From Enterobacteriaceae endosymbiont of Donacia provostii (GTDB lineage: Bacteria; Pseudomonadota; Gammaproteobacteria; Enterobacterales; Enterobacteriaceae), in NCBI RefSeq assembly GCF_012570145.1, contig NZ_CP046207.1, positions 1-6,377 on the forward strand: 6,377 nt of DNA, written 5' to 3'. Positions within the stretch are counted from its first letter, which is position 1; every line of letters starts with the position of its first letter. The translations under genes were made by a program, and so were the position numbers. A model generated the notes under the pieces. That model had not been told where the DNA came from. It ran no database searches and saw nothing but the letters and a program-made list of their open reading frames with translations. Positions 1 to 6,377 of this stretch are shown in pieces.

Positions 1-87
1 ATGAAAAAAAAAATCTACTACATCTTTAAAGAGATAAAAAAGATAATCTTATTTTATGTAATTATTAATCTGTTAGCTACACAAGCT
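1..87 (+). other. Predicted Sec signal peptide of the adhesin (cleavage after TQA, residue 29)
   Basis: MKKKIYYIFKEIKK (basic n-region), IILFYVIINLLA (hydrophobic core), then T-Q-A / I, a small-x-small cleavage motif. Judged by eye only. Confidence 0.55.
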
Positions 88-2829
88 ATCTATACTAAAA
101 CAATAATTAAGAATAAAATTATAAAAAAAGAAAAACAAAATGTTAACTTCTATGTGAACAAAAATAGAATTAATAATCTTAGAAAAGAAATTTATCTAAA
201 TGTATTAGAAAATCAATATAAATCATTCTTAATATTAATTAGAAAAAAATTAGAATCTAAAAATAATAAAAATACAAATATTTTGATAAATGAAGAAACC
301 AATAATGTTTTGCAAAACTTGTTTTTTAAAAAATCTTTAGAAGAAGATGAAATAAAATGGAGTAATATAAAGAAAAATTATCATAGTAATTATTCAGGAA
401 GATCAAGTTATATTTCAGACATATATAAAACAAATATACAAAGTAATGATGATTCTGAGAATAATATTTTTAATTTATTTTTTTTAGCGAAAAAAAAATT
501 CTCTAATAGAGAAGTATTTATAGAAAATATAAAGTCTAACATTTTAAATAGATTCAATTTAAAACTTAATAACATAGTTAAATTAACTATGTATAGGATA
601 TTTGAAAAATTTCAGTTAAATGGAAAATCTTTAGTTAAGATAAATTTAAATGATAATTTGAATCTGAATAATTCAGAACTAGATTTATTATTTCCTTTTA
701 TAGAAAAGGAAGATTATATTCTTTTTATACAAAATAGTATACATAGAACAGACAATAGAAATCAAAATAACTTAGGTTTTGGATTGAGAAAACTATCATT
801 AGACAATAAGTACTTATTAGGAATAAATAGTTTTTTAGACTATGATATATCTTTAGATAATACAAGAGTTAGTTTAGGTTTAGAATTATGGGGTGAGTTT
901 TTTAAAATTAGTGCTAATACATATTATGGATTAAGTAGATGGTGGCATCAAAATAAAAGTTTTTTATATACGGAAAAAAATAATAATTTATATGATAATA
1001 TAAATGATGATGAATTTTTTTCAAAACCTGCTGCAGGATGGGATATTAATGCAGAAGGGTATTTTTTAAAGTTACCAGAAATATTATTTAAATTAAGTTA
1101 TACAAAATATTATGGAAACATAGGATTTAAACAAAGTGATTTTTTAGAAAAACATGAAAAATTATTTTCTCCTTCAATTTATTCATTTAGTATTAAATAC
1201 ACTCCTATTCCTGTTTTATCTTTTGTTATAGAAAAAATAAAAACTAATTATGGTAAAGATAATATTCAATTTGGAGGGTATTTAAATCTAAAATTAAATT
1301 CATCTTTTAGTGATCAAATACATAATAAAGTACATAATATATTTTCATCATCTTATGATAATAGATATGATTTTGTGAAAAGAGATAATAATATTGTTTT
1401 AAAATATAGAAAAAAATTTTTGATTAAATTATCAACAAAAAAAGAAATTTCAGGATATCCTAAAAGTGAACATTCTTTAGGACTAATAATTAATTCTGTA
1501 AACAAAAATATTAATATAAGTTTTCATAGTCAAGATAGTTTTTTTAGAAATGGAGGTTCTATGAAAATTCTTAATGGTGACTACATAATTAAATTACCTA
1601 GTTATGATTTTAAAAAAACACAAAATAATTCTTATAAAGTTAAAGTAATAGCTTATGATGCATTAAGTAACCGTAATGATATTTCTTATATCAAAATTAA
1701 TGTTATTTATCCATTAATAGATAAAAATAATTCTAATTTTAGTATTTACCCTAATTATATATTAATAAATTCCGAAGAGGCAAAAGTTACTTTTGATGCT
1801 AGAGATGTAAATAACGAACCCTTAATAAATATAAAAAATATTAGTTTTGTAGTTGAAAATGGTAATTTTCCTCGTCTTTATAATATAAAAATTAGTAAAG
1901 TACATGAAAATCCTAAAGGAACTTATACTGCAATTCTTAAAAGTTTAACTCCTGGAACAGCTTTAATAAGAGTAAAGATTAATGATGTTTGTAATAAGGA
2001 AATTGGTGCAAAAATTCATGTTACTAATGCATATACAGATAATATGCAAGTTGTAACTACTCCTTCTAATTTATTGTTGAAGGTAAATGAATCTTTTCAT
2101 TTTCTGATAAAAGTTTTTGATAAACATGGTAAGGGTATACCTTCTTCTGAAGTTAAAATAACTAAAGTAATAGCTATGGATCGAGCAGGATATGTTAGAG
2201 AAGATAATGGAGATTATCATTTTGATGATTTAACTAATAATACATCTTATGATGGTAATCATTTTATATCTTATACAAATAAAGATGGGGAATTAAAAGT
2301 TAAAGTTTCTGATCCTCATGGTATTGGAGTACGTACTTTTTTTAAAATTAGTGCAGACGATTGTGTTAGTAAAGAAATTTCTGTAGTTTTTTCTGTTCCT
2401 ACTAGTCCTAAAAGTGTATATGCTAAAATGTATGGTCATATGCCAGATTTTATATCTGTAAATAATTTGAAATTTTATAGACCTACATTATCTACTGAAC
2501 GTACAGGAGATCAAGTAAATCATTATTTAAATGAAGATTGGGCAAAATTTACTTGGTATAATGCTGAAGAATTTTGTAAATCAAGAAATTTAAGATTACC
2601 TACTAAAGAAGAACTATTAGATTTCTATCATATCCATTCAGGAAATGATTTATTAAGTAATTATGGGTGGCCTATAGTTGATAGATTTAATAGTGCTTGG
2701 AGTTCTTCTGCTATAAGAAATATGTATTTTCATGATCCTTTACATTTTTATGTTGATTTTTTAAATGATAAAATGGATAAAGAAATTGTTAGTGATGCCT
2801 TAGTTGTTTTTTGTGTTCAAGATAGTTAA
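1..2829 (+). CDS. Intimin/invasin-family inverse autotransporter adhesin (942 aa): signal peptide, N/K-rich low-complexity linker, inverse-autotransporter beta-barrel, about 3 bacterial Ig-like domains, C-terminal C-type-lectin-like domain
   Basis: Uninterrupted 942-codon ORF starting at the ATG at position 1. Residues ~258-470 (LGFGLRKL...LLGINSFLDYDISLDNTRVSLGLELWGEFFKISANTYYGLSRWW...KPAAGWDINAEGYFLKLPEILFKLSYTKYYGN...RDNNIVLKYRK; nt ~772-1410) match the conserved intimin/invasin beta-domain pattern as I recall it (NxFfDyd..R.slG.E.w.d.l.lsaN.Y..lS.W...ERpA.GfDi.a.gyLP..P.L..kl.y..YyG). Residues ~472-797 show Big-domain-like strand patterning (YKVKVIAYDALSNRNDISYIKINV; GTYTAILKSLTPGTALIRVKIND; TNKDGELKVKVSDPHG). 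Residues ~800-942 (nt 2398-2826) align with the intimin D3 / invasin D5 lectin-like domain: FTWYNAEEFCKSRNLRLPTKEELLDFY against intimin VTYNDAVNTCKNFGGKLPSSQNELENVF, and C-terminal VVFCVQDS against AYATCVK. No LysM-like segment is visible. Confidence 0.85.
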   Translation: MKKKIYYIFKEIKKIILFYVIINLLATQAIYTKTIIKNKIIKKEKQNVNFYVNKNRINNLRKEIYLNVLENQYKSFLILIRKKLESKNNKNTNILINEETNNVLQNLFFKKSLEEDEIKWSNIKKNYHSNYSGRSSYISDIYKTNIQSNDDSENNIFNLFFLAKKKFSNREVFIENIKSNILNRFNLKLNNIVKLTMYRIFEKFQLNGKSLVKINLNDNLNLNNSELDLLFPFIEKEDYILFIQNSIHRTDNRNQNNLGFGLRKLSLDNKYLLGINSFLDYDISLDNTRVSLGLELWGEFFKISANTYYGLSRWWHQNKSFLYTEKNNNLYDNINDDEFFSKPAAGWDINAEGYFLKLPEILFKLSYTKYYGNIGFKQSDFLEKHEKLFSPSIYSFSIKYTPIPVLSFVIEKIKTNYGKDNIQFGGYLNLKLNSSFSDQIHNKVHNIFSSSYDNRYDFVKRDNNIVLKYRKKFLIKLSTKKEISGYPKSEHSLGLIINSVNKNINISFHSQDSFFRNGGSMKILNGDYIIKLPSYDFKKTQNNSYKVKVIAYDALSNRNDISYIKINVIYPLIDKNNSNFSIYPNYILINSEEAKVTFDARDVNNEPLINIKNISFVVENGNFPRLYNIKISKVHENPKGTYTAILKSLTPGTALIRVKINDVCNKEIGAKIHVTNAYTDNMQVVTTPSNLLLKVNESFHFLIKVFDKHGKGIPSSEVKITKVIAMDRAGYVREDNGDYHFDDLTNNTSYDGNHFISYTNKDGELKVKVSDPHGIGVRTFFKISADDCVSKEISVVFSVPTSPKSVYAKMYGHMPDFISVNNLKFYRPTLSTERTGDQVNHYLNEDWAKFTWYNAEEFCKSRNLRLPTKEELLDFYHIHSGNDLLSNYGWPIVDRFNSAWSSSAIRNMYFHDPLHFYVDFLNDKMDKEIVSDALVVFCVQDS

Positions 2830-2918
2830 CTTAATTTTTTTTGATTAAAGACAATTTTTATTTAAAATAAATGTCATATAATATTCATATATTTATTATA
2901 AATATGAATTAATTTAAA

Positions 2919-3011
2919 ATGAATAATTTATTTTATAGGCATGTTAAAAATATTTTTTTTAATAGTATATTTATAATTACAGTTTTATTTTTTCATACAC
3001 ATGTATATGCA
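2919..3011 (+). other. Predicted Sec signal peptide of the polygalacturonase (cleavage after VYA, residue 31)
   Basis: MNNLFYRHVKN (basic n-region), IFFNSIFIITVLFF (hydrophobic core), then H-V-Y-A / QDT. Similarity to mature PehA starts shortly downstream. Judged by eye only. Confidence 0.6.
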
Positions 3012-4199
3012 CAAGATACACGTGCTGTTCATGAACCAGTAATACCTAAAGTATGTAAAATATTAATAGCAGATAATAAAAAAGATTTTACTAATGAAAT
3101 TAATAATGCTATTGTAGGTTGTGCTAAACAACATAAGATAATTAGCTTATTACCTTCCAGTAAAGGAGATAATTATTTTTTTTCAGGACCTATTATTATT
3201 CCATCTTTTGGTGGAATTTTAATTAATAAGGGAGTTATACTTTCAGCAATTAATGATCCTAACTTATATGATAAGGGTAATCAAATATGTGGAGAGTTAG
3301 ATAATATAGGTAAAGGATGTAATCCCTTTATAACTTTAAAAGGGGAAAATAGTGGTTTATATGGAGAAGGATATATTGACGGTCAAGGGGGTAGTATATT
3401 AAAAAATAAGAAATATACTTGGTGGCAATTAGCTACAGAAGCAAAAATTAAACATAAAAAACAAAATAATCCTCATTTAATTGATATTAAGTCAGGAAAA
3501 AATATATCTATATACAAATTACATTTAATAAATTCTCCCAATTTTCATATTGTACCCTATAATACAAATGGTTTAACTATTTGGGGTATAGAAATAAATA
3601 CTCCTTCTGATGCTCGTAATACTGATGGTATAGATCCCTCTTCTTCTCAAAATATAACAATTACACATTCTAATATTAATACAGGAGATGATAATATAGC
3701 TATTAAAGCTGGTAAAAATGGGCCATCTAAACATATATCTATAATAGATAATAATTTTGGTCATGGACATGGTATGTCAATAGGAAGTGAAACAAATAGT
3801 GGAGTTAGTAATGTTCTTGTTAAAAATTTAACATTACAAAATGCAACTAATGGAATTAGAATTAAAAGTGATATTACTAGAGGGGGATTAGTTACTGATA
3901 TTTATTATGAAAATGTTTGTATTTTTAATGTTAAAAATCCTATTATTTTAGATACTCATTATAGTGGCAAAATAAGTGAAGATAAAAATATACCAAGATT
4001 TAAAAATATTTTCTTCCAAAATGTTGAAGTTTTAACTCCTGGAGTATTAAAATTTGATGGATTAGATGAAGATAATATGATTGAGGTTTTTGTAAATAAT
4101 CTTCATGTAAGAAGTGGATCTTCATGGGTTAAAAATAATGTTATAATTCATGGTAATATTGATAATATAATCGATATAGATATTTGTAGGAAGTATTAA
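2919..4199 (+). CDS. pehA: Secreted endo-polygalacturonase, glycoside hydrolase family 28 (PehA-like pectinase), 426 aa
   Basis: All four GH28 signature motifs are in frame: NTDG at nt 3618-3629 (N234), GDD at 3684-3692 (G256-D258), GHGMSIGS from 3765, RIK at 3858-3866 (R314). Long collinear similarity to Pectobacterium PehA as recalled: FFSGPIIIPSFGGILINKGVIL / FLSGPLSLPSGVSLLIDKGVTL; CGELDNIGKGCNPFIT / CGVVDKNGKGCDAFIT; GYIDGQGG / GTIDGQGG; WWQLATEAKIKHKKQNNPHLI / WWELAADAKVKKLKQNTPRLI; LINSPNFHIV / LINSPNFHVV; ARNTDGIDP and TGDDNIAIKA are identical. The paired cysteines C46/C68 and C124/C134 are retained. An N-terminal signal peptide is present. Confidence 0.93.
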   Translation: MNNLFYRHVKNIFFNSIFIITVLFFHTHVYAQDTRAVHEPVIPKVCKILIADNKKDFTNEINNAIVGCAKQHKIISLLPSSKGDNYFFSGPIIIPSFGGILINKGVILSAINDPNLYDKGNQICGELDNIGKGCNPFITLKGENSGLYGEGYIDGQGGSILKNKKYTWWQLATEAKIKHKKQNNPHLIDIKSGKNISIYKLHLINSPNFHIVPYNTNGLTIWGIEINTPSDARNTDGIDPSSSQNITITHSNINTGDDNIAIKAGKNGPSKHISIIDNNFGHGHGMSIGSETNSGVSNVLVKNLTLQNATNGIRIKSDITRGGLVTDIYYENVCIFNVKNPIILDTHYSGKISEDKNIPRFKNIFFQNVEVLTPGVLKFDGLDEDNMIEVFVNNLHVRSGSSWVKNNVIIHGNIDNIIDIDICRKY

Positions 4200-4855
4200 T
4201 TTTTTTTTAAAACTAGAAAAGTAGTTTCATTATTTTTTTTATTTGATATATTTTTTTTTATAATATATAGATTATAAAATCTAGCAGCTATTTCATTTCC
4301 AATAGCTGCTAGATTATCTTGTGAAGAAGAATTTTTAATGAAATTCATAGCAAAAGATGTACTTGAACAGTATTTTATTTCCCATAGTGGATGTTCTTTT
4401 ATAAAAGAACTACATTGTTTTAATGGTTCTTTATGGCTATAGATTTTTTTTATTTTATTTAAAAAAATATTTTTTTTTTTGGTAACTAAACAGTTTTTAA
4501 TGGGTAACTTTATAGTTGTTTTTATTTTTACATAAGTACTATTTTTCTTTAAGTATTTTAATACTTCTTTAATAATTCCTGTATGATTATTTATTATAGG
4601 AACTATAGCTATTTGAATTATACCTGTTTTAATATGTAAAAAAATTTCATTAAAATTATGACAACTTACATTAATAATTTTTTTTTTAAAAAAAAAATTA
4701 TTAATGTAAGTTAATACAGCTAGATGAGAATAACTATATAATGGACCTAAAAAAGCAATGATCTTTTCTTTATTTTGATTATTTAAATTTAAAAAGATAT
4801 TTTTTATATCACTTATATTATTATTAATAATAATATTGTTATTTTTATTTAACAT
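4196..4855 (-). CDS. pheA: Prephenate dehydratase, stand-alone PDT domain (219 aa): a pheA P-protein derivative lacking both the chorismate mutase and the ACT regulatory domains
   Basis: Collinear with the PDT domain of E. coli PheA (about residues 100-285) as recalled: [19 protein letters not shown] / [36 protein letters not shown] / [50 protein letters not shown] / [47 protein letters not shown] / [22 protein letters not shown] / NFTRFVVL. The Thr equivalent to catalytic T278 is kept. Only 31 N/I-rich residues precede the PDT domain, and the stop comes 3 codons after FLVL, where the ACT domain would begin. Confidence 0.87.
   Translation of the reverse strand: [219 protein letters not shown]
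4278..4315. repeat. Perfect 15-bp inverted repeat with an 8-nt loop inside the 3' part of pheA (possible terminator for the convergent pectinase transcript, or a protein-binding palindrome)
   Basis: AATCTAGCAGCTATT (4278-4292), loop TCATTTCC (4293-4300), AATAGCTGCTAGATT (4301-4315). The arms are exact reverse complements. Each arm contains TAGCAGCTA, which matches the iteron core TAGCAGGTA at 8 of 9 positions. The function is not established. Confidence 0.4.
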
Positions 4856-4915
4856 ATGTATTTATATAAATAGTTTTATTTCATCATAACATAAATTATA
4901 TTTAAAGTAAAATTG

Positions 4916-5779
4916 TCATTTTTTAATAACATGTACAATATCATTTTTATCTATCCAACAACTCCATCCTGTAACTAATGAAACTTCAAATAAAGATTTT
5001 TTTAGAATTTGTCTAAACTTCCATAAAATAATAATTTTACTTCCACATAAGTTTTTTAAAGTTATTACCTTATAATATAAGGGGACATTATGAGTACAAT
5101 AAAAACAATGTATCCATTGCGATAATGGTCTTTTTTTTAGCTTTTTTCTTTCTTTTAAAGAAATTATAGTCCAAATAGATTGAGTAAAGAAAGATATTAT
5201 ATTTTTATTTAAAAAAATAACATTTTTTTTAGTTTTATCATTTCTATACCATTCTTGTAACAGATGACCTATATAGAAATAATCTCTATAATTAATTTCT
5301 ATACTACAGATAGATAACCTAATTAAAGATGATTTTAACCATTCATAGTCTTTTTTACCTGTTTTTCTATCTATGGATTTTAAAAAAGAATAAGATGAAA
5401 AAATAACTTTTTCTCCAAATGGTACTTTTGAAAATCGATACAAACATTCTAACCATACATCTAAATCTGATTGATCTAAACTTTCTCCAGTAAATTTTAT
5501 AATAAAATCATTTAGTGATGTTTTTAAGATATTTCTTTCATATCTTCTATATCCTTTTTTTAAAATACCAAATAAAGAACTACGTAAGATAATATTAGGT
5601 ACAGCTCTTCTATTTTTTGAGATATTTGGAAAAAAATTTTGTATATTAATACTTTTTTTTTTTCTCAAACATAGTTCTTTTTTTTTTTCTTTTTTTTTTG
5701 TTTTTTTTTTATTTATAACATTACTTTTATTAATGAGTAAACGAATTCTTTCGTAAAAATTTTTTTTTTTTTTATACAT
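4916..5779 (-). CDS. trfA: TrfA-family plasmid replication initiator (287 aa, about the size of RK2 TrfA-33)
   Basis: Collinear with RK2 TrfA as recalled: RRAVPNIILRSSLFG / MRAMPNDTARSALFT; IKFTGESLDQSDLDVWLECLYRFSKVPFGEKVIFSSYSFLKSI / ITYTGVELRADDDELVWQQVLEYAKRTPIGEPITFTFYELCQDL; LIRLSICSIEI / LSRLQATAMGF; LKNLCGS / FRLMCGS; C-terminal LVTGWSCWIDKNDIVHVIKK / LVEHAWVNDDLVHCKR. It ends in TGA (plus strand 4916-4918) at the same relative position as RK2 TrfA. An iteron array lies upstream. Confidence 0.88.
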   Translation of the reverse strand: MYKKKKNFYERIRLLINKSNVINKKKTKKKEKKKELCLRKKKSINIQNFFPNISKNRRAVPNIILRSSLFGILKKGYRRYERNILKTSLNDFIIKFTGESLDQSDLDVWLECLYRFSKVPFGEKVIFSSYSFLKSIDRKTGKKDYEWLKSSLIRLSICSIEINYRDYFYIGHLLQEWYRNDKTKKNVIFLNKNIISFFTQSIWTIISLKERKKLKKRPLSQWIHCFYCTHNVPLYYKVITLKNLCGSKIIILWKFRQILKKSLFEVSLVTGWSCWIDKNDIVHVIKK

Positions 5780-6065
5780 ATAAAATATATTGATTTAAAA
5801 TATTCTAATTTCAAATCAAAAAATGGATAATTTTTATAGTATTTTAAATATACTGTAATTTATAGAGTAATACTATTTTTTTTCACTCTCCGTAAAAGTT
5901 TAAAACAATATTATTTTCTACTAAAGCTATATATGAATTAAATAAAAGATTTATTATTAATAAAAACATCCTATAAAAATAATAATTAAGGTTAATTATA
6001 TCTTTTTTTTTTTATATGTCAAGATAATTTAATAAAATTTTTAAAAATCATATTTTATTCTAATT

Positions 6066-6216
6066 CAGAATAGCAGGGTAGTAAAACTCGGGATAGCAGG
6101 TAGTAAAACTCGGGATAGCAGGTAGTAAAACTCGGGATAGCAGGTAGTAACTCGGGATAGCAGGTAGTAAAACTCGGGATAGCAGGTAGTAAAACTCGGG
6201 ATAGCAGGTAGTAAAA
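6066..6216. repeat. Iteron array (putative TrfA binding sites, core of oriV): 5 identical 22-bp units, one 20-bp variant and one degenerate leading copy
   Basis: CTCGGGATAGCAGGTAGTAAAA occurs at 6087-6108, 6109-6130, 6151-6172, 6173-6194 and 6195-6216. A 20-bp variant lacking two A is at 6131-6150. A degenerate copy, CAGAATAGCAGGGTAGTAAAA, is at 6066-6086. Units abut head-to-tail with no spacers. Each unit has 10 G/C in 22 nt, far above the surrounding DNA. The 22-bp periodicity equals that of RK2 oriV iterons (17-mers on a 22-bp repeat). The array lies about 290 bp from the trfA start. Confidence 0.88.
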
Positions 6217-6377
6217 AGGTGAAGAAAAATCATAAACAAAAAAAATTTATATAATCCCTTTATAATCATTTTTTTTTAAAAAAAAAAATTGAATATTAAA
6301 ACAAACTAATGTAATATAAGAAAAGTATATGAAGTAAATAGAAAATTGTTTATTATTATTTTAAATAAAATTAAGTA
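6217..6377. other. A+T-rich tract next to the iterons: candidate DNA unwinding element, and across the presumed circular junction the promoter region of the adhesin gene
   Basis: Almost pure A/T, with no ORF. Contains a T9A11 tract at 6269-6288. Its position directly beside the iterons matches the usual layout of iteron origins. There is no experimental or motif-level proof, and I could not identify repeated 13-mers. Confidence 0.35.

Follow-up and report, generated by a model that had tools for sequence, protein, structure and literature searches.

Among the closest described relatives of the protein studied here, Yersinia InvA can bring about uptake unaided by a type III secretion system, while InvE, RatA, RatB and SivH are adhesins carried by enteric pathogens. 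Surface adhesins and other pathogen-style tools are usually lost from obligate insect symbionts whose genomes are smaller than 0.5 Mb, and the re-entry of these symbionts into host cells is mostly unexplained. Here, we describe an inverse autotransporter adhesin whose carrier is not an enteric pathogen but an obligate mutualist with a genome of ~0.45 Mb, the Enterobacteriaceae endosymbiont of the reed beetle Donacia provostii. Its gene lies on a 6377-bp circular plasmid (NCBI RefSeq assembly GCF_012570145.1, contig NZ_CP046207.1), which was analyzed as a whole (positions 1 to 6,377 of the forward strand) and is referred to below as the window. We consider it probable that the encoded protein is a functional surface adhesin for host epithelial colonization, retained in a genome-eroded obligate beetle mutualist.

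The plasmid (GC content 15-29%) carries four genes, i.e., the adhesin gene, a GH28 polygalacturonase (pectinase) gene, a prephenate dehydratase-domain gene and trfA, of which the adhesin gene is the largest. It runs from ATG to TAA over positions 1-2829 (+), and its 942 codons occupy 44.4% of the replicon (2829/6377). When the plasmid is read as a circle, an in-frame stop is found two codons 5' of position 1 and no alternative start exists, so position 1 is the true start of the gene. The other five frames of 1-2829 contain 56-179 stops each, and a 942-codon open reading frame (ORF) is far beyond chance at this base composition (17-27% GC). A preliminary description of this DNA had read the ORF as an intact intimin/invasin-type inverse autotransporter filling 44% of a tiny plasmid of a reduced symbiont, and both the size and the family were borne out, the latter by Pfam IAT_beta (E 1e-48) and by matches to crystallized barrels in the PDB. 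In RefSeq, the identical product is WP_211080476.1, which bears the name "inverse autotransporter beta domain-containing protein". GenBank QJC33919.1, on the other side of this comparison, annotates only the last 261 residues (window 2044-2829) as a hypothetical protein, and for at least 11 plasmids of reed-beetle symbionts the original GenBank entries likewise annotate no more than the C-terminal 261-316 residues. Such truncated records are an annotation trap, and they may explain why the gene was passed over: within the searchable literature, neither of the two papers on these symbionts takes it up in its text (PMC7289800, PMC12508126). The gene and the domains of its product are as follows:

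1-2829, + strand: adhesin gene (inverse autotransporter, type Ve), 942 codons plus TAA (ORF with a single start, Pfam and NCBIfam matches, RefSeq WP_211080476.1, 12 intact orthologues).
1-87, + strand: predicted Sec signal peptide, residues 1-29 (inspection of hydropathy and charge; h-region IILFYVIINLLA, likely cleavage after TQA).
88-609, + strand: N/K-rich, fast-evolving region, residues 30-203, presumed periplasmic (composition, no LysM, very low AlphaFold2 (AF2) confidence).
610-1410, + strand: beta-barrel translocation domain and linker, residues 204-470 (Pfam IAT_beta, PDB 4e1t and 4e1s).
1411-2397, + strand: three bacterial immunoglobulin-like (Ig-like) domains, residues 471-574, 575-662 (Invasin_D3/Big_1-like) and 697-799 (BIg21) (Pfam, AF2, Foldseek).
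2407-2826, + strand: C-terminal lectin-like adhesion domain InvE_AD, residues 803-942 (Pfam, alignment to InvE 5n40, invariant columns).

The domains were compared across 12 plasmids, comprising those of the symbionts of 11 named species (Plateumaris pusilla, Macroplea mutica, D. provostii, D. crassipes, D. cincticornis, D. piscatrix, D. fulgens, D. simplex, D. dentata, D. versicolorea and D. clavipes) and a plasmid from sequencing run SRR32619173. On inspection, the putative signal peptide combines a K-rich n-region (+6/-1), a 12-residue h-region with a mean hydropathy of 2.8 and the TQA motif, and its n/h layout is kept in 12/12 orthologues although the identity of this segment is only 18-38%. 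Residues 30-203 consist of 18% N and 15% K, whereas in the rest of the protein the two residues combined make up 19-21%. The identity of this region among orthologues is 24-43%, with a ratio of nonsynonymous to synonymous substitution rates (dN/dS, or ω) of 0.3-0.95. LysM was not matched by the window protein (E≤1) or by any of the 12 orthologues (E≤0.1); in inverse autotransporters this module is optional and does not define the family (PMC6555100, PMC4943183). At the same time, islands around E117-Y131 are conserved (e.g., E117, N122 and Y131), and a helix is predicted at residues 170-203, directly before the barrel. The preliminary description was thus right that the N-terminal region is N/K-rich and without LysM, yet simple degeneration does not describe it: judging by the alignments, the region is fast-evolving while its length, signal peptide and motif islands persist.

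In the barrel, residues 204-463 match Pfam IAT_beta at E 1e-48 (166.7 bits vs a cut-off of 22.3), and 12/12 orthologues match this model as well. Against the PDB, the single sequence aligned end to end with the barrels of invasin (4e1t, 1e-30) and intimin (4e1s, 2e-29), with the alignment extending to the conserved RYDxVxRNNNIVLxY end of the crystallized domain, and a 12-sequence profile raised these matches to 1e-51 and 3e-50, respectively. The AF2 full-length model (mean predicted local distance difference test score, pLDDT, of 51) placed 11 strands within residues 225-428, followed by a helix, at pLDDT <50; barrels of this family have 12 strands and hold the linker inside the pore.

Downstream of the barrel, Pfam recognized Ig-like domains, for which the preliminary description had proposed a search, i.e., BIg21 (E 1e-11, 45.6 bits vs a gathering score of 27.4) and the Big_1-like Invasin_D3 (E 1e-07, 32.6 bits, just under the gathering score of 33). 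The intimin C-terminal domain that it had also named, Intimin_C, was not matched; instead, the tip is InvE_AD (residues 803-926, E 5e-23, 82.4 bits vs a cut-off of 32). The order BIg21 then InvE_AD is present in 12/12 orthologues. Within the tip, which aligns to InvE 5n40 and gives only weak C-type-lectin matches, Cys859 and Cys938 are invariant (12-16 sequences aligned), as are the motifs A-x-MYG-x-M (808-814), RP-x-L (827-830), LNE-x-W (843-847) and YGWP (888-891). Modeled separately, the passenger reached a mean pLDDT of 73, with values mostly of 70-94 for the Ig-like domains (residues 471-800), whereas the larger part of the tip stayed <50. The top Foldseek matches of this model were InvE 5n40 (E 1e-18), InvD 5ldy, FdeC 4e9l, invasin 1cwv and intimin D00-D0 6tqd; TM-scores against such rod-like multidomain structures are low, and the matches were used for ranking only. 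The structural kinship with intimin and invasin that had been suggested earlier is therefore visible, with InvE, rather than intimin or invasin proper, as the closest structure.

With a predicted signal peptide, an N-terminal barrel, an Ig-like rod and a lectin-like tip, the protein has the architecture that defines a type Ve inverse autotransporter, and its passenger is, by its domain matches, of the BIg21 + InvE_AD class (InvE/RatA/SivH type, formerly DUF823/DUF824). More specific identities were considered and rejected. Intimin itself does not fit, given an NCBIfam equivalog score of 146.9 bits vs a cut-off of 1400 (a match confined to the barrel and some of the Ig-like stretch) and the missing LysM and Intimin_C. 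Neither does an InvA-type invasin, as it is InvE, rather than invasin D5, with which the tip aligns, and the NCBIfam invasin model scores 136.9 bits vs 710. The RatA/RatB equivalogs score 50-66 bits vs cut-offs of 3700-4079, leaving a kinship at the domain level only.

All 12 plasmids, from symbionts of Plateumaris, Macroplea and Donacia alike, carry an intact adhesin orthologue of 923-971 codons without a frameshift or stop, and it takes up 44-56% of the plasmid. These orthologues lie beside the origin region and share the four-domain Pfam pattern and the RefSeq name of the window protein, differing from it in sequence (30-64% identity, i.e., a protein divergence of 36-70%). ω was calculated by the Nei-Gojobori method for the least saturated pairs, with bootstrap 95% limits. 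Since dS saturates at ~0.6-0.8 in this AT-rich DNA, inflating ω, conclusions were drawn from close pairs only:

D. fulgens vs the SRR32619173 sample: ω 0.25 (0.19-0.33).
D. crassipes vs D. cincticornis: ω 0.28 (0.22-0.35).
D. dentata vs D. versicolorea: ω 0.33 (0.24-0.44).
D. provostii vs D. crassipes: ω 0.38 (0.31-0.46).

Constraint is uneven along the protein, being strongest in the barrel (ω ~0.2), weaker in the tip (0.4-0.6) and weakest in the N-terminal region. For the same pairs, the other plasmid genes gave 0.08-0.30 (TrfA), 0.16-0.55 (dehydratase) and 0.17-0.32 (pectinase), and the adhesin is the fastest-evolving plasmid protein, with a dN ~2-3 times that of TrfA. The window gene offers 499 possible single-base nonsense changes, of which at least 25 would be expected even at a dS of 0.15 and none was observed. 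Moreover, the 39 distinct gap blocks between the orthologues are all in frame. The adhesin gene is under purifying selection, as the preliminary description had supposed from its intact frame: ω is 0.25-0.38, with upper limits of at most 0.46.

Several single copies deserve mention. The M. mutica orthologue (contig L002, 6211-6327 joined to 1-2664) spans the origin of its record, is intact and equipped with a signal peptide only in that reading, and is the most divergent copy (30% identity). The SRR32619173 plasmid (Logan contig L005, 5034 bp) is complete and very similar to the D. fulgens symbiont plasmid (adhesin dN 0.07, dS 0.29), and its source is presumably an unsequenced or differently labeled reed-beetle sample. 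In a scan of genome contigs, no reed-beetle symbiont was among the matches, and the sole match listed was a barrel-only ORF on a Pelagibacteraceae single-cell contig (L003, 4704-5630, +). Its 308-aa product has a signal peptide and an IAT-like barrel segment without a passenger, and is 49% identical to window residues 245-310; it resembles the 'barrel-only' architecture of Heinz et al. 2016, or could be contamination.

In line with a functional gene, orthologues of the adhesin are abundantly transcribed in published data. RNA-seq of four sister symbionts, reported in EMBO Reports in 2025 (PMC12508126), labels the orthogroup N0.HOG0000365 as 'IAT' (Dataset EV5) and provides DESeq2 values (Dataset EV4), in which a negative log2 fold change (log2FC, adult/larva) denotes higher expression in larvae; the leucine-pathway genes, reported as larval, have the same sign, and the adult-biased pectinase is positive. 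The values for IAT in that study are:

D. marginata symbiont: baseMean 6020, log2FC -2.57, adjusted P (padj) 2e-24.
D. versicolorea symbiont: baseMean 36187, log2FC -1.03, padj 0.005.
D. thalassina symbiont: baseMean 2769, difference not significant.
M. mutica symbiont: baseMean 0.5.

The D. versicolorea IAT accession is exactly the 971-aa protein encoded on that symbiont's plasmid (L012). Adhesin orthologues are highly transcribed, and in two of the four species they are larva-biased.

These data are consistent with the following course of events. The precursor would be exported by Sec through its N-terminal signal peptide, and the barrel (residues ~204-470) would be inserted in the outer membrane by BAM, aided by SurA and DegP. 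The passenger would then be threaded out via the barrel to form a short rod of three Ig-like domains ending in a lectin-like, InvE-type tip, probably stabilized by a Cys859-Cys938 disulfide made by DsbA. Once displayed, the tip would bind a molecule on beetle epithelial cells, leading to attachment, and probably uptake, at the larval midgut caeca after ingestion with the egg jelly; the same attachment is possibly repeated later in the Malpighian tubules. For four sister symbionts, the gene tables include the genes that such a route calls on (secY, lepB, bamA, bamB, bamD, surA, degP and dsbA), and a text search of these tables found no entry for 'type III secretion', flhA, fliC or fimbriae. As for the life cycle, the symbionts are extracellular in the egg jelly, rapidly colonize larval midgut epithelial cells and then occupy the Malpighian tubules, in and outside cells, which the authors of the genomes call surprising for so eroded a genome (PMC7289800). 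A host-directed adhesin is the most economical reading because it joins this life cycle to an available export machinery where type III, flagellar and fimbrial entries are missing, and a role in colonization would fit both the life cycle and the larval bias in expression. Stammera, an extracellular symbiont (PMC7289800), offers a contrast: its three sampled plasmids share the pectinase (52-56% protein identity), and none of the three carries the adhesin, TrfA or dehydratase genes.

Several points weigh against this proposal. That the passenger is displayed on the surface, that its cysteines form a disulfide, that it has a ligand on host cells and that it acts in attachment or entry are all inferred. 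The export and assembly genes are known from the gene tables of the four sister strains, and the barrel and the lectin-like domain are modeled at low confidence, so that strand number and disulfide geometry are provisional. To our knowledge, InvE has no described ligand, and thus the receptor is not predictable from homology. The larval bias is limited to two of four species, expression is also high in adults, where many symbiont cells are extracellular, and the contrast with Stammera is a single comparison. Finally, the M. mutica orthologue has a baseMean of 0.5, vs 6694 for trfA on the same plasmid, which may be a counting artefact of a gene that crosses the record origin.

Much of the same evidence would also apply if the adhesin were displayed on the surface and aimed at something other than host cells, e.g., at other symbionts, the egg jelly matrix or luminal material of the tubules, serving aggregation, retention or transmission packaging in the manner of biofilm-promoting inverse autotransporters such as YeeJ. 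Family, selection and expression apply to this reading equally; expression is high in adults too (baseMean in the thousands), a stage in which some of the symbionts live in the lumen and are released into the egg jelly (PMC7289800), and some inverse autotransporters act in biofilm formation (PMC6555100). We nevertheless find it unlikely, as expression is higher in larvae in two species, a stage in which the symbionts are described as intracellular (PMC7289800), and the domain set best matches host-directed Yersinia adhesins. A target among soluble or immune-related host factors, through which the passenger would modulate host control, would have a parallel in Yersinia InvD, whose ligands are the Fab regions of antibodies: InvD 5ldy ranks second among the structural matches, immune-factor binding is its function (PMC6555100), and the tip evolves faster than the barrel (ω 0.4-0.6 vs 0.2). 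However, the sequence match is far stronger to InvE than to InvD, insects have no antibodies and no candidate ligand is at hand, which makes this target improbable in our view. That the ORF is a decaying relic, kept only via a plasmid retained for its dehydratase gene, is close to untenable. Its rate of change relative to TrfA, the low-complexity N-terminal region and the near-zero M. mutica counts could be read that way, but not the 12/12 intact ORFs at such protein divergence, an ω significantly below 1, the missing nonsense events that neutrality would have produced, the in-frame indels or the high transcript levels in three species.

A last alternative concerns the gene next door. The preliminary description had noted a co-oriented pectinase gene 89 bp downstream, correctly so (the GH28 gene starts at 2919), and had suggested that the adhesin might tether the cell to a plant carbohydrate, working and being co-transcribed with this secreted polygalacturonase. 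Beyond the short spacer and the shared orientation, the weak C-type-lectin likeness of the C-terminal domain, the lack of a detected terminator-like hairpin in the spacer (2830-2918) and the nearly equal baseMean values in D. versicolorea (36187 for the adhesin and 35963 for the pectinase) are in favor of such a pair. Yet the adhesin is intact on five plasmids that have no pectinase (D. fulgens, D. simplex, D. clavipes, P. pusilla and the SRR32619173 sample), and because it is retained where the pectinase was lost, the idea is largely refuted. Moreover, the two genes have opposite stage biases in D. versicolorea (log2FC -1.03, i.e., larval, for the adhesin vs +1.72, i.e., adult, for the pectinase; PMC12508126), the Stammera plasmids carry the pectinase without the adhesin, and the spacer holds a conserved promoter-like element of its own; we therefore regard the tether as very improbable. 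The spacer and the three remaining genes are:

2830-2918, + strand: 89-bp spacer between the adhesin and GH28 genes, with TTGATTAAAGACAA at 2841-2854 (FNR/CRP-like) and TATAAT at 2877-2882.
2919-4199, + strand: GH28 polygalacturonase (pectinase) gene.
4196-4855, - strand: prephenate dehydratase-domain gene (Pfam, NCBIfam).
4916-5779, - strand: trfA (product 100% identical to GJT93_02250 of the D. provostii symbiont).

Across the 7 pectinase-bearing plasmids, the spacer is conserved above the flanking coding DNA, and TTTTTTGAT is invariant. The center of TTGATTAAAGACAA lies ~41.5 bp upstream of the transcription start expected from the TATAAT, as in class II promoters that depend on FNR/CRP. 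Counts of the FNR-box motif are not above chance (7 vs 14.5 expected) and a consensus promoter scan was uninformative (66 sites vs 63 expected), so that the argument for this element comes solely from the conservation of the spacer between species. An FNR-like regulator restricted to pectinase-bearing symbionts has been proposed to control GH28 (PMC12508126), and the spacer element, by its sequence, is a candidate site for it, which fits that proposal. The tables of the same paper were also searched for mapped transcription starts under the plasmid locus tags, and none was found among the entries listed.

Additional observations were made on the rest of the plasmid and on the pectinase. The pectinase genes of Stammera (contigs L013, 3190-4470, -, and L014, ~2850-4080, -) contain in-frame TGA codons at conserved Trp positions. 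A reading of these genes as pseudogenes was rejected, as the placement of the TGA codons is consistent with genetic code 4, which is documented for Stammera (10.1101/2023.12.12.571295); in the adhesin and pectinase genes of the window, all Trp codons are TGG. The dehydratase gene overlaps the convergent pectinase gene by its last 4 bp. Its product matches Pfam PDT over residues 33-218 and positions 95-285 of the 386 of the NCBIfam P-protein model, and both the chorismate-mutase part and the C-terminal regulatory part were unmatched with the Pfam and NCBIfam models. Between trfA and the adhesin gene, ~7 direct repeats of 20-22 bp (unit AACTCGGGATAGCAGGTAGTAA) at 6063-6216 are probably the iterons of a TrfA-type origin; related repeats are found in D. 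crassipes and D. cincticornis, but in D. piscatrix another tandem repeat takes their place. A sigma-70 consensus that is perfect at 12/12 positions (TTGACA-16-TATAAT) lies on the minus strand at 6022-5995, directed towards trfA.

Proteins of this kind are already known, and this one bears a RefSeq name. What is new is the assembled case: a gene kept in all sampled lineages under purifying selection, highly expressed with a bias to larvae in some species, not dependent on the pectinase, and with a specific, testable role in a mutualist of ~0.45 Mb. The literature stresses the amino-acid gene and the pectinase, but these may not be the only reasons why the plasmid is kept. If the protein is a host-directed surface adhesin, as we propose, it is the best candidate for attachment to, or entry into, beetle cells in each generation, and as a single protein, which can be produced in E. 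coli or coated on beads in the way once used for Yersinia invasin, it is amenable to testing. A bolder version of this proposal, which we put forward tentatively, is that it is a mutualist's invasin: a single-protein device for host-cell entry with no need for type III secretion, the last recognizable virulence-type factor of a 0.45-Mb symbiont, upregulated in larvae for entry into the epithelium of the midgut caeca, and later the Malpighian tubules, and with a fast-evolving tip that tracks a beetle receptor. If true, this would explain how so eroded a genome alternates between the outside and the inside of host cells.

How the protein relates to the known systems can be summarized by comparison with three of them. 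Intimin (EaeA) of enteropathogenic and enterohemorrhagic Escherichia coli resembles it in the barrel (4e1s, profile E 3e-50), in its D00-D0 domains (6tqd), which are like the first Ig-like domains, and in its length of ~940 aa. It differs in that the window protein matches neither LysM nor Intimin_C and has InvE_AD as its C-terminal domain; in addition, intimin requires the translocated receptor Tir and a type III system, whereas the gene tables of the sister strains have no 'type III secretion' entry. Y. pseudotuberculosis InvE (5n40) is the best match for the passenger (profile E 1e-42 over residues 574-921, in agreement with the Foldseek ranking), and, together with the Salmonella RatA/RatB/SivH-type adhesins, it shares the succession of BIg21 and InvE_AD and the plan of barrel, Ig-like rod and lectin-like tip. 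The identity between the two passengers is nonetheless 23-24%, and that of the window protein is short, with three Ig-like domains. Yersinia InvA is close in the barrel (4e1t, profile E 1e-51; 29% identity in the fold alignment) and likewise joins an Ig-like rod to a lectin-like cap, but the profile reaches 1cwv only via an Ig-like domain (residues 547-674, E 3e-07), and the integrin-binding determinants are not alignable. Of note, InvA is also without LysM. By analogy, then, the adhesin of the D. provostii symbiont would act like the Yersinia invasin without being one.

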